DNA from: a virus
Lineage: Duplodnaviria; Heunggongvirae; Uroviricota; Caudoviricetes
IMG/VR virus record: IMGVR_UViG_2909262264_000005
Reading direction: 5' to 3' (one strand)
DNA: 64,000 nucleotides
The notes below the pieces were generated by a model. That model made no database searches. It saw nothing but the letters and a program-made list of their open reading frames with translations, and had not been told where the DNA came from. Each line of letters begins with the position of its first letter. Within the stretch, counting starts at the first letter, position 1. Below are positions 4,997 to 59,150 of this stretch, piece by piece. The position numbers and the translations under genes were made by a program.

Positions 4997-5054
4997 CCCA
5001 CAAAAAAGCCCGCCTGAACCGGCGGGCTGTCATAACACTGTGTTACCTGGCTAA

Positions 5055-5654: not shown

Positions 5655-5721
5655 AATTACCTCTCGCTTTTCTGCAATAAAAAAGGCGCCATTTCTGGCG
5701 CCCGTATATGGGTTATAAAAT

Positions 5722-8700
5722 TCAGCTGATACTGATGCCTGCGGTGGCTTTCTTCATCACCACAACCAGCAAATCGCTGATACTTGCTGTGGGATACCAG
5801 TCATTTACCAGCCACGCTGACACCGAAAACTCCAGCGTCATGTGACCGTGACCAGCCGGCATATCAATAACACCACTGTAAATCAGCGTATTATCCAGCG
5901 CGGTACGGTTATAAATTTCAGCGCCGTTTTTCCGTACGATCAGACGGCATGAGGAGTAAATATCAGTATGCTCTTTCTCATGTTTAGCGCCACTGAATGC
6001 CACCGCCGGAATAACAATCTGCCGGTCAAACGGCTGATCGTCATAAACCCTGACGGTAATGGTTCCTGATGGCCACCGCTCCGGTGCACGGGAGTCCCGG
6101 GGGAAAGCTTTGCCCACTGTTTTAACGAGATCGCCTTCAATCTGGTTCGCGGACAGTTTTCCCAGAACCCGACAGTTCTCGTTAATCGTGACGTTGTTGA
6201 GCGTCCCGGAGTTCGCATTCACGTTACCGCTGATATCGGCATTTTTCGCCGTCAGCCGTCCGTCCGGTGTCAGGGAAAATGCCGGAGGATTACCGCCGCT
6301 GGTAATGGTCGGAGCCGTCAGGCGTTTCAGGAACACGTCGTTCATGAATATCTGATCGCCCTGACCAACAAACATTGGTCTTGTGTTGCCATTAGACGGA
6401 TCAATAAACGCGATACGGTTAGCGGCAACCAGGAACTGGCTCAGTTTGCCTTCCTCCGTATCCTCCATGCTGAGGCCAATACCCGCGACATAATGTTTGC
6501 CGTCTTTGGTCTGCTCAATTTTGACGCCCCACATGGCATTCCACTTATCACTGGCGTCCTTCCACTCTTTCGAAAACTCCTCCAGTTTGCTGGCGTTATC
6601 CTCCGTCAGCTCGACTTTTTCCAGCAGCTCCTTGCCGAGATGGGATTCGGTTATCTGGCCTTTGAAAAAATCCAGGTAACCTTCCGCATCATCGCTCGCC
6701 CGACCAACAGCCTCCACGAATGCCGATTTGCCAACGGTGTTCACACTGCGGATATAAAAGTAATAATCATGGCCCGGTTTGATATTGATACTGGCGGCTA
6801 TCCAGTACAGCGCCGTACCAAGATAGCGGGCTGTGGTTTCAACCTGCCTGATATCGGTAATCCGCTTTTCCGAGAACCAGAACTCAAACTGTACCGTCGG
6901 ATCATAAACCGCAAGATGCGGCGTGGCGGTGATCTGAAAATAGCCCGGCGTCAGCTCAATCCGCGACGGCGCTGCCGGTGCGGCAATCCGGAACGATACC
7001 GACGCCGGATCGCCCTGCTGTCCCCACGCATTTACCGCCCGGACTGTCAGCCTGTAGTTTCCCAGCGCCAGCTGCCTGAAGCGGTATGTGGTTTCCGTCG
7101 TCCGGGCCGTGCTGACCAGCCGCTCACTGCCGTCATCCGCTGCCACGGCCAGGCGAAGCAGGAAGCTCACGCCCTTCACCACCTTCGGCGTGTCCCAGCG
7201 CGCCAGCACCTGATATTCCCCGCTGTCTGCGGTGACTTCTGCGGTCAGGTGCTGCACTGCTGGCGGCGTGACACCATTCACCGTGCCGCTCTGGTCGCCG
7301 TCAAAGTGCGCCCCGTTATCCACGATGGCCTCTTTTTCCGGTACATGCTGCACGGCGGTGATGGCATACGTGCCGTCATCGTTCTCACGGATACTCACGC
7401 AGCGGAACAGGCGCTGGCGCAGCGTCGGCAGCTTCAGCCCCCACACGCTGTATTCAGCAACACCGTCAGGAACACGGCTCACTTTCACCTTCACGCCGTC
7501 GGTGACGGACTGGACCTCCACGCTGACCGGATTGCCATTTCCGTCAACCAGGCTTATCAGCGTGGTACCGGAGGATGGCAGCGTGATTTCACGGTCGAGC
7601 GTCAGCGTCCGGGTCTGGCTGTTCACCGCCAGCACGCGACCACCGGTGCTGATACCGGCATAGTCATCATCGCAGATTTCAATGACATCGCCCGGTACAT
7701 GGCGAAGCCCTTCAGCACCCACGCTGAAATCCACGGTCTGCGTCTCCAGCAGTTCCGTTTTAATCAGCCACAGCCCGGCGCGGTGTGCCTGCCCCCGGCT
7801 GGTACAGCCAAAGGCATCCATCTTCGTGACATTACGACCGTAACGGGCAATGGCCTGCGTATCTTCAACAAGCTCTGTCGCCGTCTCCCAGCCGTTGTTC
7901 GGGTCAATCCAGTTCACCTCAACGGCATTATGGCGGTCCTTCAGGGCGCTGAAGCTGTAGCGGAACGGCGCGCCATCATCCGGCATCACCACATTACTGC
8001 GGTTATAGGTCCACACCTTATCCGACGGTCGGTCCTGCACGAACGTCAGCGTCTGCCCGTTCCATACCGGCATACAGCGCATCGCCGAGCAGAAATCACT
8101 GAGCACATCCCACGCCTTGCGCTGTGTGGTCAGGTACGCATTACAGGTGATGCGCGGCTCCGTGCCGCCAAAGCCGTCCGGCACTGACTGGTCGCAGTAC
8201 TGGCCGATGACATACAGCGCCCATTTGTCCACATCCGCCGCACCAAGACGTTTCCCCATGCCGTAGCGCGGGTGGGTCAGCATATCCCACAGACACCAGG
8301 CCATGTTGTTGCTGTATGCTGGTTTTAACGTTCCGTCCCAGATACCGCTGTATTGTCGCGTCTGCGGGTTATAGTTCGACGGCACCTGCAGAATGCGCCC
8401 GCGAAGATGATAATTACGACTCACCTGCTGGCTGCCGAACTGCTCCGAGTCCACCTGTACGCCGACCAGTGCAGTGTTCGGGTAGCACTGTTTCACATCG
8501 ATGATTTCGGTGTATGACGACCAGAGCGTTTTGTTCTGCAGCTGGTCTGTGGTGCTGTCCGGCGTCATCCTGCGCATCCGTATATTGAACGGGCGCGGCG
8601 GCAGGTTACCCACCACCACCGAGGCCAGATACTGCGAGGTGGTTTTGCCCTTAATGGTGATGTCTTTTTCCGTCACCCAGCCACCATTACGCTGGATCTG

Positions 8701-9117
8701 AACCAGCAGGCGGACTTCCGACGGATTCCGGTCCCCCTTTGAGGTGGTTTCCACCAGTGCCTGCACACCGAAGGTAAAGCGCAGACGGTCGATGTTTGCA
8801 GACGTGATGGTCCGGGTAATCGGCGTGTCGTACTTCACTTCCGTACCCAGCACCGTCTCGGAGCCGGAGGATTCAAATCCCTCCGGCGGTGTCTGCTCCT
8901 GCTCACCGGCCCGGAAAACCACCGTGACACCGGAGATATTGGTATTCCCCTCACTGTCCAGCACCGGCGTACTGTTCAGCAGCACGCTTTTTAATCCGTC
9001 CACCGGACCTTCAACCGGCCCTTCACTGATGGCGTCTATCACGCTCAGCATCTGGGATGATTTCAGGTTGTCCTTCGCTTCGCGCGGGGTATGCCCCTTA
9101 CTGCTGCCTTTACCCAT
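5722..9117 (-). CDS. Host specificity protein J (central tail fibre)
   Basis: 1131 aa; position and length as lambda gpJ; paralogue at 54314-57796. Confidence 0.9.
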
Positions 9118-9177
9118 TCGTCATGCTCCATAAACGATAAAACCGCCCGGAGGCGGTTTCACATAAAACGTTTTTCA

Positions 9178-9819
9178 TCAGCGACCAATCACCACAACCT
9201 GACCACCATCCCCTTCGTCTGCCGTGCTGATCTCCTGAGAGACCACCCGCGACCCCACGCGCATTTCACCGTACAGAACGGGCAGAACATTGCCCTGGGC
9301 AACCATATTATCCAGTGAAGAAAAATAGGTGTTCTGTTTGCCGTTATCCGTTGTCTGTGTGCGGGGGGTTTTGGGTTTAGGAGCCAGCATCTGTGCAACA
9401 CCGCCAAGCGTCATACTGGCACCGAGAGAAAAAAGCAGATTACTCGCCATTATTCCTACCCCCGGCATCCATATAGCAACCGCCATAACAGCAGCTCCCA
9501 GCACTGCCTGAAACACACCGCCACTTTTGGCTCCTGCCAGACGCGGCACGATGTGGATCACTGCTCCATTCGCCAGCGGTTCATTAAGACGGGCTGATAA
9601 TTCGTTTTCGCCTGCATCACGCCCGGCAATGCGCACCTGATACCAGCCGTCGCTCAGTTTCTGACGAAACGCCGGAAACTGCATAGCCAGCGCCCGGATG
9701 GCTTCGGCTCCCGTTTTCACACGCAGATCGATGCGGCGACCAAATCGTTGTAAATCCCCGTAAAGGCAGATGCGTGCCATGCCCGGTGACGCCAGAGGGA
9801 GTGTGTGCGTCGCTGCCAT
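9178..9819 (-). CDS. Tail assembly protein I
   Basis: MAATHTLPLASPGMARICLYGDLQRFGRRIDLRVKTGAEA... recognised as lambda gpI-like. Confidence 0.8.
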   Translation of the reverse strand: MAATHTLPLASPGMARICLYGDLQRFGRRIDLRVKTGAEAIRALAMQFPAFRQKLSDGWYQVRIAGRDAGENELSARLNEPLANGAVIHIVPRLAGAKSGGVFQAVLGAAVMAVAIWMPGVGIMASNLLFSLGASMTLGGVAQMLAPKPKTPRTQTTDNGKQNTYFSSLDNMVAQGNVLPVLYGEMRVGSRVVSQEISTADEGDGGQVVVIGR

Positions 9820-10460
9820 TTGTCGGTATACCTCTCTCGTTTGCTCAGTTGTTCAGGAATATGGTGCAGCAGCTCGCCGTCACCACAGTAAATGGCGGCA
9901 TGATTCGGCACCGATGAACCAAAACAGCACAACAGCACATCGCCCGGTTGTGCTGATGACAACGGCACCTGATACAGCCCCGTGGCCTCCAGATTATCCA
10001 GATAGAGATTCTGACCGTTACGCCACCAGTCATCCCCGCGATGAAAATCCGGCATCTCAATCCCCGCCAGATGATAAGCATCCCGGAACAGCGTGTAACA
10101 GTCCGTCACCCCGTGCTCAAAGCGTCGCCCGGTAAGATGCGGCACACTGCGAAATTTATGAATCTCACCCCGGCAGACCAGCCACCAAGGCAAATCGCTC
10201 TGCACCTGCAGCCGCCGGTCGGCCTCACTCAGCCAGGGCAGACCACCGGGGTGGCTGTGGACCAGCGCCACAATCTCACCCTGCATCTCTGCCCACAGCC
10301 AGTCCTCCGGCGACATCCGGAAATACGCCTCCGGCTCACCGGAGATATTCACGCAGGGAAAATATCTTTCCCCTTCCGGCGTTCTCACCACGAAGCCGCA
10401 CGACTCCGCTGGCGCACATCGCCGGGCGTGCGCCAGAATCGCTGATTCTGTCTGTGTCAT
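9717..10460 (-). CDS. Tail assembly protein K (NlpC/P60 and MPN/JAB-like domains)
   Basis: MTQTESAILAHARRCAPAESCGFVV... with HSHP motif; 3' end overlaps the gpI-like gene. Confidence 0.8.
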   Translation of the reverse strand: MTQTESAILAHARRCAPAESCGFVVRTPEGERYFPCVNISGEPEAYFRMSPEDWLWAEMQGEIVALVHSHPGGLPWLSEADRRLQVQSDLPWWLVCRGEIHKFRSVPHLTGRRFEHGVTDCYTLFRDAYHLAGIEMPDFHRGDDWWRNGQNLYLDNLEATGLYQVPLSSAQPGDVLLCCFGSSVPNHAAIYCGDGELLHHIPEQLSKRERYTDKWQRRTHSLWRHRAWHASAFTGIYNDLVAASICV

Positions 10461-10465
10461 GGGAT

Positions 10466-11164
10466 TTACTGCGAAAGTTTGTTAATGGAAAGGAAGCCGC
10501 CAAAGTTGCCGACGTTATTGCGAAACTTACAGCCACTCAGGCATTTGCTGCATTTATCCTTCGTGATATCGGACGTCGGCTGATCATATTCATCCGCGAC
10601 AGCCGGACCGTGATAACCGCACTCATCACCGCGATAGGTCCAGGTGCAGGTGTTGGCCAGCATGATGCGCCCCGGAAAAACAGCGCCATCCGTTTCCGTC
10701 GGCGTGGACAGTACAAAAGAAGCACTGACCGCGCTCAGTTCGCTGCACTGCTCGATGCGCCAGCGGCTGATCACCTCCTGCTCCGGGTCGGCGTCACTGT
10801 TCCCGTTGACGAAGTTCACCGCATCCAGAAAACGGGCGTAAACCTTACGCCGGACCACCGTTCCGCCGACCAGACTCTGCAGATCTTCCGCCATCCCGGT
10901 GACCATGCCGTGCAGATTAGAGACTTTCAGCGTTGGCCTTGCACTGGCTCCTTTGCCGTTCATCTCAAATCCACTTCCCTGAATGGGATAGGCCTGATAC
11001 TGCCGCCCCTGCCAGGTGACTGGTTCACCTTTTTCGTTCTGCTCATTACAGAAGAAATAACGATCTCCGCCGACCTCTGTCAGATCAATTTCCCAGAGCA
11101 CGACCAGCGCGGATTGCTCCGTTTTAGTGCACTCATTGAGTGTTTCCTGCTGTATATCCTGCAT
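10466..11164 (-). CDS. Minor tail protein L
   Basis: 232 aa, same length as lambda gpL; Cys-rich C-terminus. Confidence 0.8.
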   Translation of the reverse strand: MQDIQQETLNECTKTEQSALVVLWEIDLTEVGGDRYFFCNEQNEKGEPVTWQGRQYQAYPIQGSGFEMNGKGASARPTLKVSNLHGMVTGMAEDLQSLVGGTVVRRKVYARFLDAVNFVNGNSDADPEQEVISRWRIEQCSELSAVSASFVLSTPTETDGAVFPGRIMLANTCTWTYRGDECGYHGPAVADEYDQPTSDITKDKCSKCLSGCKFRNNVGNFGGFLSINKLSQ

Positions 11165-11520
11165 CAGTGAGTGACCTCTTCAAAGGTACAGTTAAAATCG
11201 GTATACATAGCATTATCCGAAATGCTCCACTCCCTGCAGACAACCCGGACAGTCCTGTTGTGTTTTGGCGGACGCCACAAAAAAGCACGAATCCCGGCAT
11301 GACGGGATAAAAAACTGTCCAGCGCGGCACGGGAATATTCATCTGTGACACGAAATACCGGTTTAAACGTTTTCAGATCCGCATTCAGACCACCAGCCCG
11401 TCGCTGTTCATATCCGTCACCAAACTTTACCGTAATAACTGATGGCTTTCGTGTCGTCTCCATCCCCTCACGGGGGATCCAGTTAAAAACTTCAGGCTCA
11501 GGCACTGTATAATCCTCCAT
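11164..11520 (-). CDS. Minor tail protein M
   Basis: Conserved FGDGYEQRRAGGLN motif; start set at the MEDYTV ATG (listed ORF extends to 11550). Confidence 0.65.
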   Translation of the reverse strand: MEDYTVPEPEVFNWIPREGMETTRKPSVITVKFGDGYEQRRAGGLNADLKTFKPVFRVTDEYSRAALDSFLSRHAGIRAFLWRPPKHNRTVRVVCREWSISDNAMYTDFNCTFEEVTH

Positions 11521-25631: not shown

Positions 25632-26057
25632 TCACAGGTACTGCTCCAGCGGCAACTGCAGCGCCTGAGCAATTTTCTTGAGCTGTGCTTCTTCATCCGG
25701 ACCAATGCCATCCTGGTCAGCGATATCCAGACACAGGCACAGCACATTAACTGCATCATCAGTACCGGCAACATCAGCCAGCTGACGAAGAGCTTCGGCA
25801 TTGGCAGAACGCGGCGACGCTTCATAACGGGCGCGGATATTTGCACTCATTTGTGCAATCTCACCGGAGAACGGCGCAAAAGCAGGAAGTGCTGCAATGG
25901 TTTTCTCCAGCACCGCGATTTCTTTCGCATCACAGGTGCCGTCGGCGAATGCGATGGAATACGCACCCCAGACGGTCGCCTCCACTGCGTCGCGGTTCTC
26001 CATTTTCTTTACTTCAGTAATGGCCTTGCGGGTTTTCTTTTTGAAAATACCAAACAT
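25632..26057 (-). CDS. TerB-like (tellurite-resistance TerB domain) protein
   Basis: 141 aa with paired acidic motifs ADGTCDAKEIAVLE and IADQDGIGPDEEAQL characteristic of the TerB fold. Confidence 0.6.
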   Translation of the reverse strand: MFGIFKKKTRKAITEVKKMENRDAVEATVWGAYSIAFADGTCDAKEIAVLEKTIAALPAFAPFSGEIAQMSANIRARYEASPRSANAEALRQLADVAGTDDAVNVLCLCLDIADQDGIGPDEEAQLKKIAQALQLPLEQYL

Positions 26058-26740: not shown

Positions 26741-26815
<75 letters not shown>

Positions 26816-27837
26816 ATACTGTACTGGCTTCCGGAATCACACGAATTACCAGGAAAGCCAGCACTGGTCCTTCAGACGATAGTAACGCCCCTGTGAACAC
26901 AAAAATAACCGTCTTCCGGACCAGTCAGAATACTAACGACAGTTTTTCAGACATCAAAAATATATTTGGTGTTCAGTTTTAAATATGTGTATACATATGT
27001 ATCAGAAATATACAACTTATATCATCACTGAATTAAAAATCTTTCGTTATTTCTCTGACCGTCTGATTAAAACGTTCCTCTTCCAGTTCCACGCCAATCG
27101 CCCTGCGTCCCAGCGACAGTGCCGCTTTTATTGTCGACCCCGACCCCATAAAAAAATCAGCAACCAAATCTCCCGGATGGCTGCTGGCGGTAATTATCTG
27201 ACGCAACATATCCGCCGGTTTCTCACAGGGATGTTTGCCGGGGTAATACTGCACAGGCCTGTGCGTCCAGACATCCGTATACGGAACAGCTGCCGATACG
27301 GAAAAATAACGCCGCAGGGATTTGTACTCTTCCAGCAGGCTGGCGTATTGACGGTTCAGTTCACTGTATGTGCTGACCAGCTGGTGGTGTGGCTTTTCCA
27401 GTTCCCCGCGCTGATGCTTTTCTGCTGCAACACGCGCAAACAATGCCTGCAGTTTTCTGTAATCAGCTTCGTTCGGTAACTGCCACTGACTGGCACCAAA
27501 CCAGTGCGAAGCCATATTTTTCTTTCCGGTGGCTTCCGCTATCTGTTTTGACGTTATTCCCAGTGATTCACGCGCATCACGAAAGTAAGAAATCAGCGGG
27601 GCCATGACGTGCTGTTTTAGCTCGCGCCCCTTTGCTGCAAAATGGCATCTAAATCGATCACGGTTTGGCATTCGAATCGATCATGATTTGGCATCCATCT
27701 CCGATCACAGTTTGGCATCACAATCGATCACGATTTGGCATGCTTCCGATCATTGATTGGCATCCTGCCAGTCACTCCGGGAATTAACTCTTTTCACCAC
27801 AGTCTTCATTGCCGTGTTTAAACCAGTGGAGACGGCA

Positions 27838-29403
27838 ATGTCCAGAAAGAGAAAATCCAGGAGCACTATGGAAACCTGTTTTAAGATCCTTCAGCTCAAG
27901 TTCGACCAGAAGCTGACTAACCGTTGTATCGGACTGACGTTACACATCAGCGCCTCAACCGTTTTTGAGGTTCTTGCACGCTTCAAAGCCTCTTCTCTGT
28001 CATGGCCATTACCTGCTGATATATCCCATGACACGCTGGAGAAACTCATTTACCCGCCCAAAGACACCTCTGCGTCAGAGCTTGTTATGCCTGACATGCT
28101 GTACTTCGATACGGAAATGAGAAAACCGGGCGTGACGCGCCAGCTGTTGTGGATGGAATACAAGGCACAGGCGAGTGACAAAGCGATGGGATACTCGCAC
28201 TTCTGCCGTTGCTACCGGGAGTGGAAAAAAACGCGACGCCTCTCCATGCGCCAGGAGCATCGTGCCGGCGAAAAGCTCTTTATCGACTTCTGCGGTCCTA
28301 CGGTTCCTGTTATTAATCCGGACACCGGAGAGATACGCCGCGTGGCAATCTTCGTGGCCGTGATGGGGGCATCCAACTATACCTACGTTGAAGCGTGCGA
28401 AGGTCAGGACATGATGTCATGGTTAAATGCCCACAGCCGTTGCCTGACCTTCCTGGGCGGCGTGCCGAAGCTGCTCATCCCCGATAATCTCAAAAGTGCA
28501 GTCAAAAAAGCCGATCGCTATGAGCCTGTCATCAACGACAGTTATCAGGCGCTGGCTGAGCACTATGGCACGGTTATTATCCCGGCCCGCCCGCGCAAAC
28601 CTAAAGATAAACCAAAAGCAGAAAACGGCGTCCTCATCGTCGAACGATGGCTTCTTGCCCGCATCCGTAATGAAACCTTCCACACGCTCAGGGCGCTGAA
28701 TGCGCGCCTTCGGGAGTTACTGACGGACATGAATAACCGGCCAATGAAGGGGTACGGCAATCAAACCCGTGCAGAACGCTTCCGCATGCTGGATGCGCCA
28801 GCACTCTCTCCGCTGCCTCTGGCACCTTATGAATACACGGAATACAAAGCCGTGAAGGTTGGCCCTGACTATCACGTTGAATATGCCCGTCACTGGTACT
28901 CCGTTCCACACGAACTGGTCGGTCAGCGTCTGTCACTGAAGGCGGGGCAGTCTGTGGTACAACTCTGGCACAAGGGGCAGTGTGTGGCGCAACATCCGCG
29001 CAGCACACATGAATATAAACACACAACCAATCCGCTTCACATGCCAGAGCGCCACCGGCAGCACGGGACATGGACACCGGAACGCCTGATCGAGCAGGGG
29101 AAACGTACGGGCCCGTCCACAGGCCGGGTGGTTGAATCCATGCTGAAGGCAAAACCCCATCCGGAACTGGCTTATCGTGCAGTTCTGGGGCTGCTGGCAC
29201 TTCAGAAAAAATACGGCCCGGAACGACTGGAAAAGGCCTGTTACGTTGCCCTGCACTATAACGCCCCTGACAGACGCTTTATCGACAATCTGCTGCGTCA
29301 CCATCGGGAGAACCTGGAGCTTCCATTATCCCGCCAGGGCGAACAACATCCGACATATGCTTCAGAGCATGAAAACCTGCGTGGTCCGGGCTACTACCAC
29401 TGA
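27838..29403 (+). CDS. istA: IS21-family transposase IstA
   Basis: N-terminal HTH then DDE-type core; GGAG RBS before ATG 27838 (listed ORF starts at 27757). Confidence 0.85.
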   Translation: MSRKRKSRSTMETCFKILQLKFDQKLTNRCIGLTLHISASTVFEVLARFKASSLSWPLPADISHDTLEKLIYPPKDTSASELVMPDMLYFDTEMRKPGVTRQLLWMEYKAQASDKAMGYSHFCRCYREWKKTRRLSMRQEHRAGEKLFIDFCGPTVPVINPDTGEIRRVAIFVAVMGASNYTYVEACEGQDMMSWLNAHSRCLTFLGGVPKLLIPDNLKSAVKKADRYEPVINDSYQALAEHYGTVIIPARPRKPKDKPKAENGVLIVERWLLARIRNETFHTLRALNARLRELLTDMNNRPMKGYGNQTRAERFRMLDAPALSPLPLAPYEYTEYKAVKVGPDYHVEYARHWYSVPHELVGQRLSLKAGQSVVQLWHKGQCVAQHPRSTHEYKHTTNPLHMPERHRQHGTWTPERLIEQGKRTGPSTGRVVESMLKAKPHPELAYRAVLGLLALQKKYGPERLEKACYVALHYNAPDRRFIDNLLRHHRENLELPLSRQGEQHPTYASEHENLRGPGYYH

Positions 29404-29419
29404 CAGAAGGAACAACAGT

Positions 29420-30175
29420 ATGAGTGATAACCTGTTAAACAAACTGACCCAACTGAAACTCCCGGCGATGGCCGGGAGCCTGATACGGCAGCGGGAAACG
29501 CCTCAGACCTACGACGAACTGTCGTTCGAGGAAAGGCTGACGCTGCTGGTTGATGACGAGCTTCTGAGCAGGGAAAACAGCCGTGTGGCACGGTTGAGAA
29601 AAAATGCCGGCCTGAAATACCAGGCAACACCGGAAGGGCTGCGCTATCCGGCCTCAAGAGGTCTGCGGGCTGAACAGATGAGAGAACTGCTGAACGGTCA
29701 CTACATAACCCACAGGAAAAACCTGCTGATAACCGGTCCGACAGGATGTGGCAAGAGCTGGATAGCCAATGCGCTGGGCGAACAGGCATGTCGACAGAAA
29801 CACAGCGTCCGGTACTGTAGAACCGGGCGATTACTGGAACAGCTGGCTCAGGGACGTGTTGATGGCAGCTGGCTGAAATATCTGAAACAGTTGCAAAAAA
29901 TACAGGTTCTAATCCTGGACGATCTGGGGCTGGAACAGTTAAGTAACGCCCAGTGTAATGACCTTCTGGAGCTCATAGAGGATCGTTACGGACAAAGCAG
30001 CACGATAGTGGTAAGCCAGTTCCCGGTAGATAAATGGCATGGTCTGATGGAAAACCCAACAACAGCAGATGCCATCCTGGACAGACTGGTACATAACTCA
30101 CACAGAGTGGTCCTTCAGGGAGAGTCCCTGAGGAAAAATCCCCCGACAGTGGAAAGCAGCGAAAAAACGAGTTAA
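29420..30175 (+). CDS. istB: IS21-family helper ATPase IstB
   Basis: Walker A GPTGCGKS and Walker B LILDDLG; start at the MSDNLLNKL ATG. Confidence 0.9.
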   Translation: MSDNLLNKLTQLKLPAMAGSLIRQRETPQTYDELSFEERLTLLVDDELLSRENSRVARLRKNAGLKYQATPEGLRYPASRGLRAEQMRELLNGHYITHRKNLLITGPTGCGKSWIANALGEQACRQKHSVRYCRTGRLLEQLAQGRVDGSWLKYLKQLQKIQVLILDDLGLEQLSNAQCNDLLELIEDRYGQSSTIVVSQFPVDKWHGLMENPTTADAILDRLVHNSHRVVLQGESLRKNPPTVESSEKTS

Positions 30176-30873
30176 AAAGCGATAGAAAAAGTTAAGTTCC
30201 CGGTTGATCGAATGTATGCGAATCGCTGATCGGACTTCGATGCCAATCCGTGATCGAATAGAGCGGAATACGCATTTGCCGCATAGCCGTCATTTTTGGG
30301 CTGGTATGGCCCCTGATAATGTTCGGCAAACAGAATGCGCTCTGTTGCCGGGAAATACGCCCGCAGGCTTTCCTTGTTGCATCCGTTCCAGCGTCCGGAC
30401 GGCTTCGCCCAGATAATGTGATTCAGCACATTAAAGCGTTCACGCATCATGATTTCGATATCAGATGCCAGGCGATGACCACAGAACAGGTAAAGACTTC
30501 CGGCAGGCTTCAGTACCCGCCAGAATTGCGCCAGACACTGGTCCAGCCATTTCAGGTAATCATCATCGCCCTTCCACTGGTTATCCCAGCCCTCGGGCTT
30601 CACTTTAAAGTATGGCGGGTCTGTGACTATCAGATCGACAGAATTTTCCGGTAAGGTCTGGATAAATTCCAGGCAATCAGCGTTGATTAACTCACAACTG
30701 GATATTTTTACAGTATTGGCCATAGATCAATAAGCACTTCTCTGATAGGCTCATACCGCTTTTGCGCAAAGCAGATGGGCCTGAGGTTTGCTTGTGACCC
30801 CAACGCATGAGCAGATGGCTGGCAGGTGCCGCTAACACCCACCAGCCGCCCATTACCACAAATTAAAAAGCCT

Positions 30874-31071
30874 TCACTGCGGAAGGCGTCTGTAACAACC
30901 GAACTGATAATCTGCCAGACCCGCCATAACAAGCTGAGTCAGTATTAACTGGCAGCGTTCGCGTGAAAGGTACGTATTCTGCGCAATTTCCCCGACGGTC
31001 GCCGGTTCGGTGACGCTTAATTCATTAAATACCACTCTGGCGGTTTCGGTCATATCCTGCTGTTTTAGCAT
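30874..31071 (-). CDS. Small putative winged-helix DNA-binding protein
   Basis: 65-aa ORF with HTH-like segment TVGEIAQNTYLSRERCQLILTQL; AAGGGA RBS; own terminator hairpin just downstream on the minus strand. Confidence 0.45.
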   Translation of the reverse strand: MLKQQDMTETARVVFNELSVTEPATVGEIAQNTYLSRERCQLILTQLVMAGLADYQFGCYRRLPQ

Positions 31072-31522
31072 GTCTTTTCCCTTTTCCGGTTAACGTGACA
31101 TACCAATAACTCTTGTCGAAAAAGCCAGCAAGCTGAAAGACCAGTATTCGCAACCACCAGCGCGTTTAACGTACTGCGCCGCTTTTCGGGCATAAAAAAC
31201 CCCGTTTGGCGGCTGGTTTAAGCTGTGCGGCAAAGTGACCACTCTTAACATCATATTTAAATTTTTACGTACGTAAACCAGCACGCAAAAAATTTACATT
31301 ATAAAATACAAAAACAATAACTTTTCATTACATTTCAGAAGCGCATCTCTCATTACAAAAACATCGTCAATAATTACCAGTACGCATAAACGAGATCTTG
31401 ATCACACTTTGAACCATTAAATAAACTCCATATCTTGAAATAGCCATACCGATTAGATGTATATTTAGGCCGCAGTGACAATATTTTTTAATAATAGTTC
31501 CGAAAAGGACTAAGGATTCACG

Positions 31523-32620
31523 ATGAAAAAATTAACAGTGGCAATCTCTGCTGTAGCTGCGTCAGTATTAATGGCGATGTCTGCTCAAGCAGCAGAGATT
31601 TATAACAAAGACAGCAACAAACTGGATCTGTACGGAAAAGTTAATGCCGAGCACTACTTCTCCTCTAACGATAAACACGATGGTGACAAAACTTATGCTC
31701 GTCTGGGCTTCAAAGGCGAAACCCAAATCAATGATCAACTGACTGGTTTCGGTCAGTGGGAATATGAATTCAAAGGCAACCGTGCTGAATCTCAAGGTTC
31801 TTCCGGGGATAAAACTCGCCTTGCATTCGCTGGCCTGAAATTCGGTGACTACGGCTCCATCGATTATGGCCGTAACTACGGTGTAGCATACGACATCGGT
31901 GCGTGGACTAACGTTTTGCCAGAATTCGGTGGTGATACTTGGACTCAAACCGACGTATTCATGACTCAGCGTGCAACTGGTGTTGCAACTTACCGTAATA
32001 ACGACTTCTTCGGTCTGGTTGATGGTCTGAACTTTGCTGCTCAGTACCAAGGCAAAAACGATCGTAGCGATCTCGATAACTATACCGAAGGTAACGGTGA
32101 TGGCTTCGGTTTCTCTGCTACCTATGAATACGAAGGATTCGGTATTGGTGCAACTTATGCGAAATCTGACCGTACCGACACTCAAGTTAATCTAGGGAAA
32201 GTTCTTCCTGGAGTATTTGCTTCCGGTAAAAATGCAGAAGTTTGGGCCGCAGGTCTGAAATATGACGCTAACAACATTTACCTGGCCACTACCTATTCTG
32301 AAACCCAGAATATGACTGTATTTGCTGATCACTTCGTTGCTAATAAAGCCCAAAACTTCGAAGCTGTTGCACAATATCAGTTCGATTTCGGTCTGCGTCC
32401 GTCCGTGGCTTACCTGCAATCTAAAGGTAAAGATCTCGGAGTATGGGGCGATCAAGACTTAGTTAAATATGTTGATGTAGGCGCAACCTATTACTTCAAC
32501 AAAAATATGTCTACTTTCGTTGATTACAAAATCAACCTGCTTGACAAAAATGATTTCACCAGAGGTCTTGATATAAACACCGACGATATTGTTGCTGTCG
32601 GTATGGTTTACCAGTTCTAA
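31523..32620 (+). CDS. nmpC: Prophage-encoded general porin, OmpC family (NmpC/Lc type)
   Basis: 365 aa with signal peptide; recognised as near-identical to DLP12 NmpC / phage PA-2 Lc; C-terminal ...[11 protein letters not shown]...VYQF; opposite in orientation to the late operon. Confidence 0.85.
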
Positions 32621-32642
32621 ATCTTTTTATTAAAAAAGATAT

Positions 32643-32786
32643 GTTGCGGGAGATATTTATCTCCCACAACATGTGGGTGACGCCCTCACGTCACTGCATT
32701 AAGAAAGACATTTTGTCTTTTCTTTTTAACCTTCTGTTATTTATTACTCTAAACTCTTGGGGGCGTTTTTGCGTCCCCTTTTTTAT
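32643..32786 (+). ncRNA. Structured 3' region downstream of porin (IpeX-like sRNA candidate)
   Basis: Hairpins at 32643-32670 and 32677-32694 plus a terminator-like hairpin with U-run at 32759-32786. Confidence 0.35.
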
Positions 32787-32809: not shown

Positions 32810-33193
32810 TCAATAACATCTAACAACTTCAAGATCCATCTCGAGACGAACATCCAGTGCCATCAACATTCCGTCGACTATTCCTTCAGCCTTCTGAAGT
32901 TTTTTTCCTATATATCCATCAGAACAATGATGCTTACGGGCCAGTGCCATAAACGTCATACCAGCCACATAATAATCTACCAGCAAATCATGCAAATCAC
33001 TGTTGTTCTTTTTCAAACGAGCCATGCATCCGCAAATGATCATTGCGTCATCATCACTACATTGCGGTCGCGATTTAACCTTTGAAGGAATAAGTCCCTT
33101 GAATCCGGCTGCAATCGATGACCAGGTGACATCCTCATGATTATTTGCCACCCATGCCCCCCAACGCTCAAGAACCATCTGAATATCACGCAT
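32810..33193 (-). CDS. Late-gene antiterminator Q (QuuD/YbcQ-like)
   Basis: 127 aa [31 protein letters not shown]... recognised as DLP12 Q homologue; sits between replication genes and late region. Confidence 0.8.
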
Positions 33194-43944: not shown

Positions 43945-44154
43945 GTGGGGCTGGATTGCGTACCTATATCAACCTACTGCCGCAACGCAGGAGAAACGGT
44001 TGATGCCGTTAACAAACGGATACAAAGAGGAATATGGAAAGAAGGGGTACATGTATTAAAAGTCGACGGAGTTAAAGAACGTTGGGTCGACTTAATGGAG
44101 ATTACAAAATGGGCAAGAAAGAACAAGGATCATTATCTCTCCCTAGAGGAGTAA
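43945..44154 (+). CDS. xis: Excisionase (Xis-like)
   Basis: 69-aa basic protein with GTG start after GAGGTG; overlaps integrase start. Confidence 0.6.
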   Translation: MGLDCVPISTYCRNAGETVDAVNKRIQRGIWKEGVHVLKVDGVKERWVDLMEITKWARKNKDHYLSLEE

Positions 44155-45281
44155 CTATTCGGCAGCATAAAACTGGTAGCACTCTGGTTATCACTTTTAC
44201 ATATAAAGGGGTTCTGTGTCGGGAGCCCCTCTCCAGAATGGAAGTAAACGCGCGCGGTGTGAAGTACGCAGAACGTCTGCTGGGAGAAATAAAAAATCAG
44301 ATTATCGATGGTACCTTCGAATATGCAAAATACTTCCCCAACTCCCAAAAGCTGGAGTTGTTCGGGGGAGTGAAAAAAAACAAAAATATAAAATCTTATC
44401 TGGATGAATACCTGATTATCTGCCAGAACCGTAACCTGTCACCATCGACAATTAGAGGTTATGAAAAATGCTTGTCGGCGCTGTCAGCATTGCATAAATT
44501 TCATGTATCAGAACTGACACCTGCTGTACTAAAAAACTGGATCGCCAGCAGAAAAACAAAACTGAAAACGATCCGCAATAATCTTTCGTTTCTGCGCAGC
44601 GCCATAGATGAAGCGGTGACCGATGGTTTGTTAACAATAAATCCTGTCACGCTAGTCAGCGCCAGCCGGTATCACGTATTGGACAACACACCAGGCAGTG
44701 GTGATTACGAGGTCGATCCCTTTACACCAGCGGAGACGGCAGCAATCTATGACGCCTGTCATTACCCGGAATGGCGAAATCTGTTTCGCTTTGCCTTTAA
44801 TACCGGACTGCGTAGCTCAGAATTGTGCGCGTTGCGCTGGACGGATATAGACTTCATCGGCAACACCGCGCATGTTCAAACTGCAAGCGTAGTCGGGGTA
44901 ATCAAAAGCACCAAAACAAAAGCCGGCACCCGCAAAGTGCAACTGAACAGCGAAGCGCTGGCGGCTCTTCAGGCACAAAAGCCCTACACGGCGCTAAAGA
45001 GCGACTTCATATTCAGCGATCCGAAAACTCGCGCTCCTTGGGCAAACGCAGATGCGATCCGAAAAAAAGCCTGGGTACCAACCCTTAAAAAAGCTGGTGT
45101 ACGCTATCGCAATCCGTACCAGACACGCCACACGTTCGCCACACGGCACATTAGCCAGGGCGTTAACCTGTTCTGGCTTGCTGGTCAGATGGGACATAAA
45201 GGACCGGAAATGCTGTTCAGACATTACGGCTCTTACCTTGCAGAATACGATGGAAAAACGGCGATTTCTGCAGCCCCGTAA
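44109..45281 (+). CDS. int: Tyrosine integrase
   Basis: C-terminal catalytic residues in ...RHTFATRHISQGVNLFWLAGQMGHKGPEMLFRHYGSY; sits beside the att core at 45414-45440. Confidence 0.9.
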   Translation: MGKKEQGSLSLPRGVTIRQHKTGSTLVITFTYKGVLCREPLSRMEVNARGVKYAERLLGEIKNQIIDGTFEYAKYFPNSQKLELFGGVKKNKNIKSYLDEYLIICQNRNLSPSTIRGYEKCLSALSALHKFHVSELTPAVLKNWIASRKTKLKTIRNNLSFLRSAIDEAVTDGLLTINPVTLVSASRYHVLDNTPGSGDYEVDPFTPAETAAIYDACHYPEWRNLFRFAFNTGLRSSELCALRWTDIDFIGNTAHVQTASVVGVIKSTKTKAGTRKVQLNSEALAALQAQKPYTALKSDFIFSDPKTRAPWANADAIRKKAWVPTLKKAGVRYRNPYQTRHTFATRHISQGVNLFWLAGQMGHKGPEMLFRHYGSYLAEYDGKTAISAAP

Positions 45282-45413: not shown

Positions 45414-45440
45414 CGGGTTCAACTCCCGCCAGCTCCACCA
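45414..45440 (+). repeat. 27-bp att core (junction between prophage A and prophage B)
   Basis: Exact copy of ssrA 3' end; flanking sequence resembles the phage arm next to ssrA. Confidence 0.75.
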
Positions 45441-45598: not shown

Positions 45599-45674
45599 CC
45601 CTTAAGTTCCTAGCCGCTTATCTATAACTATGGAAAAATGTTAACCCTGACTGTATGTTAACAAAGGGATGTAT

Positions 45675-46883
45675 ATGTCGGTTTTTCATAACTGGCTGCT
45701 TGATATCGCAAGCGGGAATTACTTTATCTACATCAAACGCCTTTCTGCAAACGACACAGGCGCAACAGGTGGCCATCAGGTCGGACTTTATATCCCCTCA
45801 AATATCGTTGAAAAGCTTTTTCCATCTATCAATCATACTCGCGAACTGAACCCTTCAGTCTTCCTTACTGCGCATGTATCATCCCATGATTGCCCTGATA
45901 CCCAAGCACGCGCAATTTATTACAACAACCGTTATTTTGGTAAGACCCGAAACGAAAAAAGAATTACGCGCTGGGGGAGAGGAAGTCCATTACAGAACCC
46001 TGAAAATACAGGAGCCCTCACAATTCTTGCTTTCAGGTTAAACGAACAGAACACTGACTGTTCCGAGGTAGATATATGGGTCTGCGTCAATCCCGATGAA
46101 GAGGATATCATCGAGTCTGCTATTGGCGAAATCATACCTGGAACCCTAATTTCCGGCCCTGCCGGACAAATTTTGGGCGGATTGTCTCTTCAGCAAACTC
46201 CAGTAAATCATAAATATGTTATTCCTGAAGACTGGAAGAAGCGTTTTCCTTCTGGAAACGAAATTATTCAATATGCTGCTGGCCATTATGCTAAAAACTC
46301 CAAGGATCCAGATGAGCAACTGATTGACCGTCGGCGTGTCGAGTATGATATTTTTCTACTCGTCGAGGAATTACATGTTATTGATATTATTAAGAAAGGA
46401 TTCGATTCTGTAGATGAGTTTATTGCATTAGCCAACTCTGTCAGTAATCGACGTAAATCAAGGGCAGGCAAATCACTTGAACTTCACCTAGAGAAGCTTT
46501 TTATCGAGCACGGACTACGGCATTTCTCCACTCAGGCAGTTACTGAAGGTAATAAAAAACCAGATTTCCTGTTTCCTTCAGCAGAGGCATATCATAACGT
46601 TGAATTTCCTGTAGAAAACTTACGTATGCTGGCAGTAAAGACCACCTGCAAAGATCGCTGGCGTCAGATACTGAATGAAGCAGATAAAATCCATCAGGTA
46701 CATTTATTTACACTGCAAGAAGGTGTTTCTTCAGCACAATACCGAGAAATGAAAGATGCGGGTGTCAGACTCGTTGTACCATCAACTTTACATAAAAAAT
46801 ACCCAGAAGCAGTTAGAGAAGAATTAATAACGCTCGGAGCATTCATTACTGAGCTGATAGAGCTTTACGCTGAACTATCATAG
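45675..46883 (+). CDS. Type IIE restriction endonuclease, EcoRII-like (predicted CCWGG specificity)
   Basis: 402 aa; N-terminus MSVFHNWLL...YIKRLSANDTGATGGHQVGLYIP recalled as EcoRII effector domain; C-terminal PD-(D/E)xK motif (KPDFLF ... VENLRMLAVKTTCK). Confidence 0.8.
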   Translation: MSVFHNWLLDIASGNYFIYIKRLSANDTGATGGHQVGLYIPSNIVEKLFPSINHTRELNPSVFLTAHVSSHDCPDTQARAIYYNNRYFGKTRNEKRITRWGRGSPLQNPENTGALTILAFRLNEQNTDCSEVDIWVCVNPDEEDIIESAIGEIIPGTLISGPAGQILGGLSLQQTPVNHKYVIPEDWKKRFPSGNEIIQYAAGHYAKNSKDPDEQLIDRRRVEYDIFLLVEELHVIDIIKKGFDSVDEFIALANSVSNRRKSRAGKSLELHLEKLFIEHGLRHFSTQAVTEGNKKPDFLFPSAEAYHNVEFPVENLRMLAVKTTCKDRWRQILNEADKIHQVHLFTLQEGVSSAQYREMKDAGVRLVVPSTLHKKYPEAVREELITLGAFITELIELYAELS

Positions 46884-46888
46884 GCTGA

Positions 46889-46911
46889 CTCCCGGCTTAA
46901 AAGGCCGGGAG
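46889..46911. terminator. Bidirectional hairpin between convergent R and M genes
   Basis: ctcccggc-ttaaaag-gccgggag. Confidence 0.45.
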
Positions 46912-46917
46912 ATGTTC

Positions 46918-48351
46918 TCAAGGCTGCCCAGTCTTACCAGCATCAGCAGAAACAGCTTTGAGGATATAGGGTTCCAGAAGTCTGGCAACAGCTTCAAATA
47001 CTGGCACCACAACTGAGTTACCGAACTGCCGATATGACTGAGTATCTGAAACCGGAATACGGAATGGTTTCCCTCCAGGTTTTTCAAATCCCATAAGGCG
47101 TGCGCACTCTCGGGGAGTCAGCCTGCGTGGTCGACGAGCCTGATTACTCTCATTCATAAAGTCAGCCTCTCCCGTTGCCATATCCCAACCACGATCAATA
47201 AGAATTTCTGATCCGTCTTTGTGATATCTGGCAGAAAGTGTGCGTGCAATGCTTTCCTTATTCTCAGGATTGACCAACCCAAAGCCAAAACCATTCCCCT
47301 TGGCTGCATGCTTTTTGGCGTAGTTATAAAGGTACTCCCATAGTTTTGGCGTAAGTATATATTTACTGTCGACTACAGGCTCCAGCAATTCACCAAATGA
47401 TGGGCGGTGTTCCGGATAAAAACGACTGATATCACGCAAGGTAAACCCCTTGTGAATATTCAGATCTCGTCTAAATCCGACCAGAACAATACGTTCACGA
47501 TGCTGAGGCAAAAAATGCTTCCCATCGATAATCTTTGGATCGTTTTTTCCCATTTCTGCAGCATCGGCAACTTCGTAGCCCAGCTCGTCAAGGGTCTCCA
47601 TAATGACTTTGAAAGTTTTACCCTTATCATGGCTCTTCAGATTTTTGACATTTTCCAGCACAAAAATTGCCGGTTTTTTTGCTCGTATAATACGTGCCAC
47701 GTCAAAAAAAAGTGTTCCTTGTGCTTCACATTCAAAACCATGCGCACGACCAAGTGAGTTTTTCTTACTAACACCAGCAAGGCTAAATGGCTGGCACGGG
47801 AACCCCGCAAGAAGCACATCATGATCCGGCACATGCTCATCAATATATGCATAAGCATCCGTTTCCAATACATCGGTTTTATCACTCAGCGTGACTTCCC
47901 GAATATCGAGATTGAATTTATGCACCTGTTCATCGTTAAACCAGTTGGCCTTGTATGTACGCACAGCATCTTTATTCCATTCACTGGTAAAAACACACTG
48001 GCCTCCAATGGCCTCAAAACCTTTCCGTATCCCTCCAATTCCAGCAAATAAGTCAATGAAGCGGAAAGCATATTCCGGATGGTTTGCAGGTGGTTCTGGT
48101 AGCATCTTACGCAGAAGAGACTCTTCTACTGAAGTCAACGATTTTGGTAAACACTTGCCATTAATCCAGCGGTTAATGGTTTCACGGCTCCACTCATTTT
48201 TTCCGACTTTTCTCAGTAATTCAGCCACATACTTCTGATCATAGATTTCCAGCACTTTCTCGATAAGCTTTTTATCATTTTCCTGTCGCAGCTTTTCTTC
48301 CGCCTCGGCTTCCTTCAGCAGATGCTGTGCCAACACTTCAAATTCAGACAT
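46918..48351 (-). CDS. DNA cytosine-5 methyltransferase, Dcm / M.EcoRII-like
   Basis: 477 aa from ATG 48351 (GGAGG RBS); motif [14 protein letters not shown] catalytic motif ([11 protein letters not shown]), ENV (FVLENVKNL); recalled as highly similar to E. coli Dcm. Confidence 0.9.
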
Positions 48352-48712
48352 AATTCCTCCAAGGGGTCTAATGGGTGAAACTTTATCACTCATTCAACCC
48401 AGAAGGAAATGTTTTATCTGGATATTTAAACAGTGACTACAACGTAATCTAGCACTGGTGATGCTTTGTTAGGCATAGAGAATCATTCTATATACGACTA
48501 ATGACAGAAAAACAGCAGACAAGTAGTTTGTTCATAAATTAACGCATACTATGTGTCTACGGTTTTCGAGACCGGTCCAATCATCAAACGAAACATAAAA
48601 TTAGCTCACATTATGAGGAAAAGTATCTTTTTTGTACTATGTAAATTCAAAGGCTTAGCCTCATTTCTCCGATGGTTTTCTCAACACTACTGGTTGTGAG
48701 CCCTTGCAATGA

Positions 48713-49531
<819 letters not shown>

Positions 49532-49553
49532 GTCTTTAAGTGATAAGCATAAA

Positions 49554-49598
49554 CCGCAGCACGTCATGCATACGTCGTGTCTGCGGTTTTTCTTTTTT
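49554..49598 (+). terminator. Hairpin terminator between cargo island and tail genes
   Basis: ccgcagcacgtc...gacgtgtctgcgg followed by tttttcttttttg; homologous hairpin in prophage A at 1531-1575. Confidence 0.5.
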
Positions 49599-49600
49599 GC

Positions 49601-50185
49601 TTACACGGTGTCTGGTTCTTCTGGCCACTCAATATCCGGTGCAGTTGATGTATCAACACGGTTCAGCAACACCCGATACTTTTTCCAGGCTTCCAGCAAT
49701 GAGGTTTCTTCCTCCGTTGCGATTTCCAGATCTACAGCATCCTGAAGTGGCGCAATATGCTCACTGGCTACCTGCATCAGGCTGTTTTTTGTTTCTTCCG
49801 CCTCTCGGATCCGGAACAGTTTTTCTGCTTCTGCATCTTTCACCCAGGCTGTGCCGTTCCACTTCTGAAACTCCCCTTCCGGCGATAACCAGGTAACATT
49901 TTCCGGTAACGGACCGAGTTCAGAAATAAATAACGCGTCCCCTGACGCTACGTCATAAACCGTTTTACCCCGATGGTCTTCATCGAGATGCCACGATGCC
50001 TTATCACTGTTGAAAACAGCCACAAAGCCAGCAGGAATATCTGGTGGTGCAATATCGGTACTGTTTGCTGGCAGACCTGTATGAGGCGGAATATATGCGT
50101 CACCTTCACCAATAAATTCATTAGTTCCGGCCAGCAGATTATAAATTTTTATGGTCCGTGGTTGTTCACTCATTCTGAATGCCAT
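49601..50185 (-). CDS. Tail fibre assembly protein (Tfa)
   Basis: ~96% identical to the prophage A copy. Confidence 0.8.
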
Positions 50186-53100
50186 TATGCAAGCCTCACA
50201 ATATAGTTAAATGCGATGTTTTTGACGGTGTTTTCCGCGTTACCAGCAGCGTTAACGGTGATGGTGTGTCCATGTGAACCAATCGCAACGGAGTGCGTAT
50301 GAGCACCAATACCGACAGTATGCGCGTGTGCACCTGCAGATGCTGCTGTGCCGGACAGTGAATGGCTATGATTACCATCTGTACTGGTATTCGCTAACCA
50401 CCCCGTAGACATACCTACTGAGCCTTGTACACCCCAGGTATTTTGACCTGAGCTTGTATAACCATATTGATAAGTATCTTTAAAAACACTGGGGTTAAAT
50501 CGACGGCCATCTCTATGGCTGTGATTACCAGCTGCATTCGTGCTGCCACTTAAACTATGGGTATGCGCACCAGTGTTATTCGTGGATTTAGTGCCGTAAT
50601 CAAACGACGATGTGGTTTTCGTCCCCAAATCCGTACTGGATGCGCTGGCGCTGTGGGTATGCGATTTAATGCCATCCTGTTCCTGAGACAATACGGCACG
50701 ACCACTGGCGGGCTTGCCCTTAATCGTCCAGCCACGCAAATCAGGGATCACGCCTGACGGATAAGCGGCAGCAAGTTTCGGGTAGGCAGATTTGTCAAAA
50801 GTCTGCCCCTGCATCAGGGCATAACCAGACGGAACGGTATCTGATGGCCACGGGATTGGTGCGCCGACTGGGTAGCTTTCTGGTGGAAGATTTTTCGAGG
50901 TATAAACTTCTGCCCAGTCTTCCTCAAAACCATAGCCATCTCTTGAAGAACGGTAGAACAGACCACCATTTCTGTAATGCGCCTTCATCTGCAGGGTCCG
51001 GCAACTTCCGACTCCGGTATAGAAGTTAACCAGAATATAGCTGTCGCCAGAGCGGGTGACATTGTAAGCGCCTGATTCGGCATTCCAGGGAACGCCACCA
51101 TCCGCATCGGCATATGTATCCGTTGCCCTTCTGGCAAAAGCAGCCACATGCGCGGCGGTTAAAGTAATATCTTTGGAACCATCAAACTCAACACCAGAAA
51201 CCAGTCTTGGCGTTTGCAGCTTTGTTGCTGTTAATGCATTACCGTTCAGACTTGCGGACAGTTTGGTTCCAATAACCAGTTCGCCGGTTGCGTTATCAAT
51301 AGCAAACGGTCTTAATGTATTCCAGCCACCATAAACATCACCTTGATTGGTAAGCAGCAGGTAAGTTTTAGCGCCATCATTACGCCATAATGCCCCATAC
51401 TCCCCACCTATCATTCGAATCTGATTACCACCACGCGCTACAATTTCGTCTGTGGCAAAAAGTTTTTTGCACGACAAGTTATCGTTAACGATTAACGAAT
51501 GAGACTCATAAAAACCACGCCCACTCTTAAAATCAAGGATAACGTCCGCCGCGATACATTCAGTCGCCGGATTTGTTGCCCCAAACTTATAGGTCGTATC
51601 ATTAACAACGAGATCAGCACCAGGTGCGGATATTGACAGGCCATCTTCGATAAACGCAAAAACAGGGAAAGCAGCGCCATCAACATAGAACACAGAGCGC
51701 AAATCATCGCCCTTATTACTCATCATTATTGAGTGGATGGCTCGTTCATTGTTTTGATATTGCCAGAACATTCCATAAGCATAACGCCCCCTGTCAGTCC
51801 AGCCACCAGGCATAACAAATCCGTTAAACTCGCAGTTATTCATCGGATCGCCTGCGGTTCGCGGTGCCGTGGTGATAATGACCCTTGATGCCAGTTCGCT
51901 TACTGAGCCAGCAGAACGCATAACAACAACAGGGTAATATTTTCCAGATGTTGCACCTGCAGGAGCGTTAACCCGCACATAACGCATACCACGCTTATCA
52001 GCAAAGTCTGTTTTACTGACCGCGTTAATGTTGTTCAGGAAGCGTCCCTTATCGGGTATATCAGCGCCGTTCTGGTCTTTCTGCAGACGTTTCTCTGCAT
52101 TGTCATAGGCTGATTTTACTGCCTTTGGCGTTGCCGCCAGCGTTTCAGACGTACTGTTGGTCGCACTGCTGAGCTGTACTATCCCCTTTTTCGTCGTACT
52201 TGCATCCTCAAGCGCCACGGCGGATGCAATATCCTCTGCCCGTTTAGCTGCTGTCTCGGCGCGCGTTGCCGCGGATTCCGCCGTACTTTTGCTCTGTGCT
52301 GCCGCCGTCGCACTGCCAGCTGCCTCTGTCGCCTTCGTGGATGCTGTCGTGGCGCTGCCCTTCGCTGCTGACGCCTGTCTGGTCGCCTCATCTTTTGAAG
52401 CAGACGCCGATGATGCCGATGACGCCGCCGAACTGGCGGACGATGCGGCAGCCGTTTTTGAGGATTCTGCGCTGGTTTCCGACGCTTTCGCGTTCGTCTC
52501 GGATGTCTTCGCTGCGGAAGCAGACCTCGCTGCTGCACTGGCCTGTTCAGTGGCTTCGCCAGCCTTCGTTGTGGCTGTTGAAGCGGACGATGCGGCGCTT
52601 TCTGCCGATTTTCCGGCGGCGCTAGCACTGGCTGAGGCCTGCCCGGCACTTGTTGACGCGGCACTGGCAGATGATGCAGCCGCTGTTTTTGAGCCTGCCG
52701 CAGCTGAGGCACTCTGTCCCGCTGCCGTTTCAGAAGACTTAGCGTTCGTCTCGGACGTTTTTGCCGCCTTCGCAGAATTTGCTGCCGCCGTTGCCGAGGA
52801 AGCGGCACTACTGGCGCTTGATGATGCGTTCGTTTCTGATGATTTCGCTGCCTCTTTTGAGGCCGCCGCATCCCGGGCTGAGGTGGCAGCTTCTGACGCC
52901 TTCGTGGTCGCGGCGGATGCAGAAGTGGCTGCAGATTTTTGTGACGCTGCCGCATTCGTTTCTGACGTTTTCGCGGCACTGGCACTGGTAGCTGCCGCGC
53001 TTTTTGAGGACTCTGCAGCAGCAGCACTTTTCGATGCTTCAGTGGCCTTTGTTGATGCCGTTCCTGCGCTGGAAGACGCCTCCTGAGCCGAAGTCGCGGC

Positions 53101-53589: not shown

Positions 53590-53647
53590 CCCACAAAAAA
53601 GCCCGCCTGAACCGGCGGGCTGTCATAACACTGTGTTACCTGGCTAA

Positions 53648-54247: not shown

Positions 54248-54313
54248 AATTACCTCTCGCTTTTCTGCAATAAAAAAGGCGTCATTTCTGACGCCCGTTC
54301 TGGGTTATAAAAT

Positions 54314-59145: not shown

Positions 59146-59150
59146 GGGAT

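Follow-up and report, generated by a model that had tools for sequence, protein, structure and literature searches.

An ISSso4-type IS21-family element in the DNA methyltransferase gene of an Escherichia coli prophage

The insertion site and the interrupted gene

We analyzed a 64,000-nucleotide stretch of tailed-phage DNA (IMG/VR record IMGVR_UViG_2909262264_000005; hereafter, the window), in which a first-pass annotation, made from the sequence alone, had described an IS21-family element splitting a prophage DNA methyltransferase gene. Open reading frames (ORFs) were listed and the sequence was read over positions 26800-31200. On the plus strand, at 27636-30274, lies a complete insertion sequence (IS) of 2639 bp with TG...CA termini (5'-TGCAAAATGG...GGAATACGCA-3'), which full-length matches elsewhere identify as an isoform of ISSso4. 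It is bracketed by two copies of the pentamer TTTGC, each read directly from the sequence: the left copy of this target-site duplication occupies 27631-27635 and the right copy 30275-30279. The interrupted gene runs on the minus strand. Its 5' part, at 30275-30723, encodes native residues 1-149, including the catalytic DPPY motif at residue 35, and its 3' part, at 27033-27635, encodes the central target-recognition region (TRD) together with an FxGxG motif of the kind that binds S-adenosylmethionine, both parts being delimited by ORF reading. All of the numbers given in the first-pass annotation for coordinates, element length and 5-bp duplication were exact on rereading, and the direct repeat, whose absence on re-inspection it had named as grounds for doubt, was present at both sites. 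The insertion is therefore confirmed as an event of an ordinary kind, an IS21-family element in a prophage methylase gene of E. coli, and we found no evidence contradicting it.

As they stand, the two fragments of the gene both remain open. The 5' fragment forms an ORF of 183 amino acids (30172-30723) whose last 34 codons are foreign and are contributed by the IS. The 3' fragment has no native start; it can be read as a 212-amino-acid ORF from an in-frame ATG at 27671 in the left end of the IS, with 11 foreign residues. When the IS and one copy of TTTGC were deleted, a 348-codon minus-strand ORF was restored, with a joint that reads ...PKNDGYAAKGRELKQHVM... and a break falling after codon 149 of the 348. 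When both TTTGC copies were kept, or both were removed, the frame was broken and ORFs of 155 and 165 amino acids resulted.

The restored 348-residue protein matched the Pfam family N6_N4_Mtase over residues 29-340 (E value 3.7e-45). Its DPPY motif is N-terminal and its FxGxG motif, FFMGSGS at residue 309, is C-terminal, with the TRD in the central position, which is the beta-class order; the nearest solved structures were likewise those of beta-class enzymes, namely RsrI, MboIIA, CcrM, DpnA and PvuII. The earlier description of the gene as a beta-class DPPY methyltransferase is borne out by these features. Because the insertion parts the DPPY half from the half that carries the TRD and the FxGxG motif, no complete enzyme is possible, and the gene is knocked out by the IS. 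For annotation, this means that the two fragments should be recorded as a single pseudogene into which an ISSso4-type element has inserted, and not as two hypothetical proteins.

Intact counterparts of the gene were abundant. Among 5426 complete E. coli genomes, the restored 1047-bp gene aligned end to end with a single coding sequence annotated as a DNA methyltransferase in approximately 2580, the best intact orthologue sharing 95.6% DNA identity with it, and uninterrupted orthologues were also found in phiP27 and in many Shiga toxin 2 (Stx2) phages. At the protein level, one unbroken alignment was obtained both with L24 of phiP27 (93.6% amino acid identity over 99% of the length) and with the methylase of phage 1720a-02 (86.9% identity). 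The empty insertion site itself, an exact 31-nt sequence with a single TTTGC (GCTCGCGCCCCTTTGCCGCATAGCCGTCATT), was present in 38 IMG/VR viral contigs, and the orthologues in these contigs showed no alignment gap at the joint.

These data bear directly on the idea that the methyltransferase fragments were from the outset separate genes, or the parts of a split enzyme, and that the IS merely lies between them. Such a reading would fit the fact that both fragments (183 and 212 amino acids) are open as they stand, the second with an in-frame ATG supplied by the end of the IS. We nevertheless give it practically no credence, since the orthologues, in their thousands, are undivided genes of 1047 bp with no break at this position, the uninterrupted junction sequence occurs exactly in the 38 contigs, the frame is restored only by removing the IS and exactly one TTTGC, and at both fragment ends it is the IS that encodes the foreign residues. 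The intact single-gene orthologues refute it. The first-pass annotation had regarded separate genes in related prophages as the observation that would undo its claim; what related prophages carry is one gene. Its statement that the gene can be precisely reconstructed also holds, given the restored 348-codon ORF and the existence elsewhere of both the empty site and intact orthologues.

We then considered how widely the occupied site is distributed. The occupied left junction found no place covering at least 80% of the query in the 5426 complete E. coli genomes, and the occupied junction was also absent from species-representative genomes and from Joint Genome Institute (JGI) metagenomes. Copies of an IS are a classic source of misassembly, and a junction that appears in no other database sequence searched might be suspected of being an artefact in which the assembler misplaced a repeated IS. 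This explanation is scarcely believable here: a misjoin would not yield a perfect 5-bp duplication of bases that are single in the empty sites, nor would it leave both flanks continuing one gene in frame, and the window holds no second copy of the IS to confuse the assembly.

The inserted element and its other copies

The two ends of the element carry the multiple terminal repeats that the first-pass annotation had attributed to it. The left terminal region (27636-27764, plus strand) consists of the terminal sequence TGCAAAATGGCAT followed by five direct repeats of approximately 23 bp (27653-27764) with the consensus (A/T)CGATCAYNRTTTGGCAT; the repeat finder resolved the same five units, with the core GATCAYNRTTTGGCAT and a spacing of 22-24 bp. 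These left-end repeats are presumed to be IstA binding sites. The right terminal region (30195-30274, minus strand), recognized from inverted-repeat matches, contains inverted copies of the repeat, of which one (GATCACGGATTGGCAT) lies at 30240-30255, a degenerate second unit lies within 30216-30239, and a possible third lies further in; here, the repeat finder returned a two-unit inverted match to the left-end repeats. When up to two mismatches were allowed, the left end held four matches to the motif GATCACGNTTTGGCAT and the right end a single inverted one, and the motif was found nowhere else in the 64-kb window, where 0.14 matches would be expected by chance. The element thus has five repeat units on the left and two or three on the right, enclosed by TG...CA ends.

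Both genes of the element are intact. The first, istA (27868-29403, plus strand), comprises 511 codons from the ATG that the Prokaryotic Genome Annotation Pipeline (PGAP) uses in other copies; an alternative in-frame ATG at 27838 would give a protein of 521 amino acids. Its product contains the Pfam domains rve (integrase catalytic core) and Mu-transpos_C_2 (Mu-transposase C-terminal-like), has no internal stop and is identical to WP_045147483.1 at 503 of its own 511 residues. The second, istB (29420-30175, plus strand), starts 16 nt past the istA stop and encodes, in 251 codons, an AAA+ helper ATPase (Pfam IstB_IS21, 9.5e-61) with a Walker A motif (GPTGCGKS) at residue 106 and a Walker B motif (LILDD) at residue 164; 249 of its 251 residues match WP_001282653.1. 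The two reference proteins are the commonest E. coli IstA and IstB, respectively. Both products exceeded the curated NCBIfam cut-offs, IstA with 289 bits against the transpos_IS21 equivalog (cut-off 160) and IstB with 257.8 bits against IS21_help_AAA (cut-off 200), which supports the earlier assignment to the IS21 family. The intact ORFs, together with the 98-99% identity to widespread copies, are compatible with transposition activity of this copy. Relative to the prophage, the IS genes lie antisense to late transcription.

ISSso4 is a member of the IS21 family that was first named in Shigella sonnei and is common on E. coli chromosomes and on IncI, IncK and IncF plasmids. In a megablast search with the element against the complete E. 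coli genomes, full-length copies (bases 1-2639) with approximately 98% identity were found in 225 of the 5426, on chromosomes as well as plasmids, and with neighbours that were unrelated from copy to copy. The IstB proteins of these approximately 98%-identical copies are annotated by NCBI/PGAP as "IS21-like element ISSso4 family". Plasmid pCT is listed as carrying ISSso4 (PMC6361801), and the pCT copy is 2639 bp long and aligned with our element without gaps at 97.8% nucleotide identity. Judged by these sequence matches, the element is an ISSso4 isoform, a name that comes to it by way of the pCT copy and the PGAP label and not from the ISfinder reference.

Since five other copies, in unrelated contexts, have their TG start and their CA end at the same bases as this element and are each flanked by a duplication of their own (TTTGCT, CTTTC, CTTTAT, ATACTT and TTACAT), the boundaries of the IS are fixed independently of the present insertion. 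In the alignment of the copies, every IS started at the same TGCAAAATGG. The duplications of the five copies further indicate that the element makes duplications of 5 or 6 bp, often in T-rich DNA, and target duplications in the IS21 family range from 4 to 8 bp. The target TTTGC(T) was used in two independent insertions, a hint that T-rich targets are preferred. We also considered whether a boundary had been misplaced, given that matches in other genomes extended 6-17 bases past the end of the IS; these extensions proved to be nothing but similar T-rich targets (…CTTTGCT, …GCTTTC and …CTCTTTAT), and the BLAST alignments overran the IS end because the targets are often T-rich. As a separate observation, the number of left-end repeats varies among ISSso4-type copies: the copy in E. 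coli GPEC1222 (L046, 1494-4155) is 2662 bp long owing to a sixth 23-bp left-end repeat (the others compared were L040, L041, L042 and L045).

The surrounding prophage and the age of the insertion

The methyltransferase gene belongs to a phiP27-like prophage of approximately 44 kb (1033-45440) that resides in ssrA. Its limits are set by a flanking 27-nt direct repeat, CGGGTTCAACTCCCGCCAGCTCCACCA, which equals the 3' end of ssrA and whose two copies, found by repeat match at 1033-1059 and 45414-45440, represent the attachment (att) sites. The window begins with smpB and ssrA, and its first approximately 1400 bp are 99.9% identical to E. coli. A tyrosine integrase gene (44082-45281) is located at the end of the prophage that is far from the intact ssrA. 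With both att copies, the integrase and a phage gene set around the methyltransferase, the prophage context proposed by the first-pass annotation is upheld.

Read on the minus strand, the gene order of the late region is DnaC-like loader, DnaB-like helicase, Q antiterminator (32810-33193), porin gene (plus strand), a small conserved ORF (30874-31071), the methyltransferase with its IS, tRNA-Gly (26741-26815), a TerB-like gene, holin, endolysin and terminase. The porin gene (31523-32620), which is OmpC/NmpC-like (Porin_1, 2.9e-154), thus sits between Q and the methylase and is antisense to late transcription. The TerB-like "tellurite resistance" gene (25632-26057, minus strand) is, like the porin gene, cargo of the late region, in the position that stx2e holds in phiP27. 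A prophage of E. coli GF31 shows the same gene order with the methyltransferase intact.

With respect to its age, it is plausible from the sequence that the insertion is strain- or lineage-specific and fairly recent, with no date assignable to it. We read it in this way because the duplication is perfect, the gene has no other lesions, the IS genes are intact and the junction is absent elsewhere. It weighs against this reading that the word "recent", used in the first-pass annotation, depends entirely on the perfect duplication, the lack of further lesions in the 1047 bp and the failure to find the occupied junction in other sequences. The insertion could instead be old, fixed in a decaying, defective prophage and devoid of functional meaning; defective prophages are numerous in E. 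coli, there is a second, related tail module downstream, and an intact orthologue no closer than 95.6% identity gives no measure of age. We regard this as unlikely, given that both gene halves are free of further stops and frameshifts, that the two copies of the duplication match perfectly and neither IS gene is disrupted, that the prophage retains both att copies and ORFs for integrase, repressor, replication, Q, lysis, terminase, head and tail, and that the occupied junction is absent from the 5426 complete E. coli genomes.

Several further features of the window were noted outside the interrupted gene. A strong terminator-like hairpin, with a 14-bp stem and a T run, lies just downstream of Q (32641-32672, minus strand) and is a candidate tR', the terminator overridden by Q antitermination. 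Directly outside the distal att copy, an EcoRII-type restriction endonuclease gene (45669-46883, plus strand) encodes EcoRII-N and EcoRII-C domains; it is convergent with a C5 cytosine DNA methylase gene (46918-48393, minus strand), and a gene for a GIY-YIG protein (48758-49531) comes next. The region 45669-49531 has the look of cargo between two prophages that amounts to a complete type II restriction-modification system. Beyond it, a second tail and tail-fibre module (49552-59851) is 92-98% identical to positions 1529-11166 of the first prophage. From this duplicated module it follows that either a pair of related prophages or one prophage with a remnant stands in tandem downstream of ssrA, and the tandem tail modules are a substrate for recombination between the two.

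Proposed event, probable function and comparison with known systems

We hold it to be almost certain that an ISSso4-type IS21 element transposed into the methyltransferase gene in the late region of an E. coli prophage that is phiP27-like and sits at ssrA. From general knowledge of the IS21 family, the IstA protein, a DDE transposase, would have bound the repeated sites in both ends of the IS; IstB, the AAA+ ATPase, would have assembled on the target DNA and delivered it; and staggered cuts placed 5 bp apart would, upon repair, have left TTTGC duplicated. As a likely consequence, the phage DNA of the lysogen would lose its blanket N6-methyladenine protection against restriction in the next host, and the loss of the methylase would cost the lysogen itself little or nothing. 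The sequence data show the element and its boundaries, the duplication, the intact empty site in other sequences, the intact IS genes and the setting in a prophage; the mechanism of transposition, the specificity of the enzyme, the timing of its expression and the effect on phenotype are matters that we infer.

The best-described enzyme of this kind to which the restored protein can be compared is M.EcoGII, a 349-amino-acid beta-class enzyme from a prophage of E. coli O104:H4 (Murray et al., PMC5778455). Its family is very large and occurs in E. coli prophages and in known enterobacterial phages, and the methylase of phage 1720a-02 has been named as very similar to M.EcoGII (PMC5778455). M.EcoGII methylates adenine in any sequence context, so that many restriction enzymes are blocked; it is harmful under constitutive expression; in the lysogen it is silent, and induction is presumed to turn it on (PMC5778455). 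A related methylase on a prophage of ST131 is also transcriptionally silent (PMC4659465). By its length, architecture, prophage location and identity to the 1720a-02 methylase, the gene interrupted here very probably belongs to the M.EcoGI/M.EcoGII family of promiscuous adenine methylases, and, by analogy, the function lost is probably promiscuous adenine methylation that guards phage DNA from restriction, which would sharpen the anti-restriction role suggested by the first-pass annotation.

There are points that weigh against this view of the function. The connection to M.EcoGII passes through an intermediate sequence, the 1720a-02 methylase; the family is mosaic, with the nearest intact orthologue only 95.6% identical in DNA; and specificity can change within such methylase families. 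In addition, a 2.6-kb antisense insert may exert polarity on downstream late genes. On the late strand, the terminator-like sites inside the IS are weak only, and Q-modified RNA polymerase would be expected to read through such weak sites, so that polarity on the lysis and morphogenesis genes is not expected.

Two other views of the consequences were weighed jointly. The knock-out might not be neutral, in that loss of a methylase that is toxic unless its expression is tightly controlled (PMC5778455) would be a selected step in the domestication of the prophage; or both halves might be made from the Q-antiterminated late transcript, the 3' half from the ATG in the IS, and reassemble as a weak split enzyme. 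We consider this pair of ideas most improbable, neither having specific support.

Element, gene family and kind of event were all known before, and the finding matters mainly for annotation; it opens no new question and reveals no new kind of system. What is added here is the name of the element (ISSso4 type), the empty site in other sequences and a sharper assignment of the gene (M.EcoGII family). The locus also supplies a loss-of-function allele, arisen naturally, of an M.EcoGII-like methylase in a prophage that otherwise looks complete, and this allele could be used to ask whether so common an enzyme protects the DNA of progeny phage from restriction.

Compared with phiP27, an Stx2e phage in which L24 is a putative DNA methylase, the prophage is alike in carrying DnaC, helicase, Q, the small ORF (L23 in phiP27), the methylase (L24), a tRNA, a cargo gene, holin and endolysin. 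It differs in what follows the methylase, where phiP27 has tRNA-Ile, tRNA-Arg and stx2e, whereas this prophage has tRNA-Gly and the TerB-like gene, and in the porin gene inserted between Q and the methylase. With M.EcoGII as well as M.EcoGI, the restored methylase shares the order DPPY-TRD-FxGxG, a nearly equal length (348 vs 349 amino acids for M.EcoGII) and a prophage location; in contrast to M.EcoGII, the gene here is interrupted, and the likeness runs via the 1720a-02 methylase (86.9%) and not through a direct alignment. The element, for its part, agrees with ISSso4 in its 2639-bp length, its termini and its istA-istB layout, but diverges by approximately 2% and carries at its left end the variant CTAAATCGATCACGG in place of CTGAATCGATCGCAG; this variant had no match in the species-representative genomes. 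Finally, the IS21 prototype, from plasmid R68.45, is approximately 2.1 kb long, has fewer terminal repeats and duplicates 4 bp of its target. Our element has the same module of an IstA DDE transposase and an IstB AAA+ helper, and it likewise ends in TG...CA, carries several terminal repeats and makes a short duplication, but, unlike the prototype, it is 2.64 kb long, with five left repeats and duplications of 5-6 bp.

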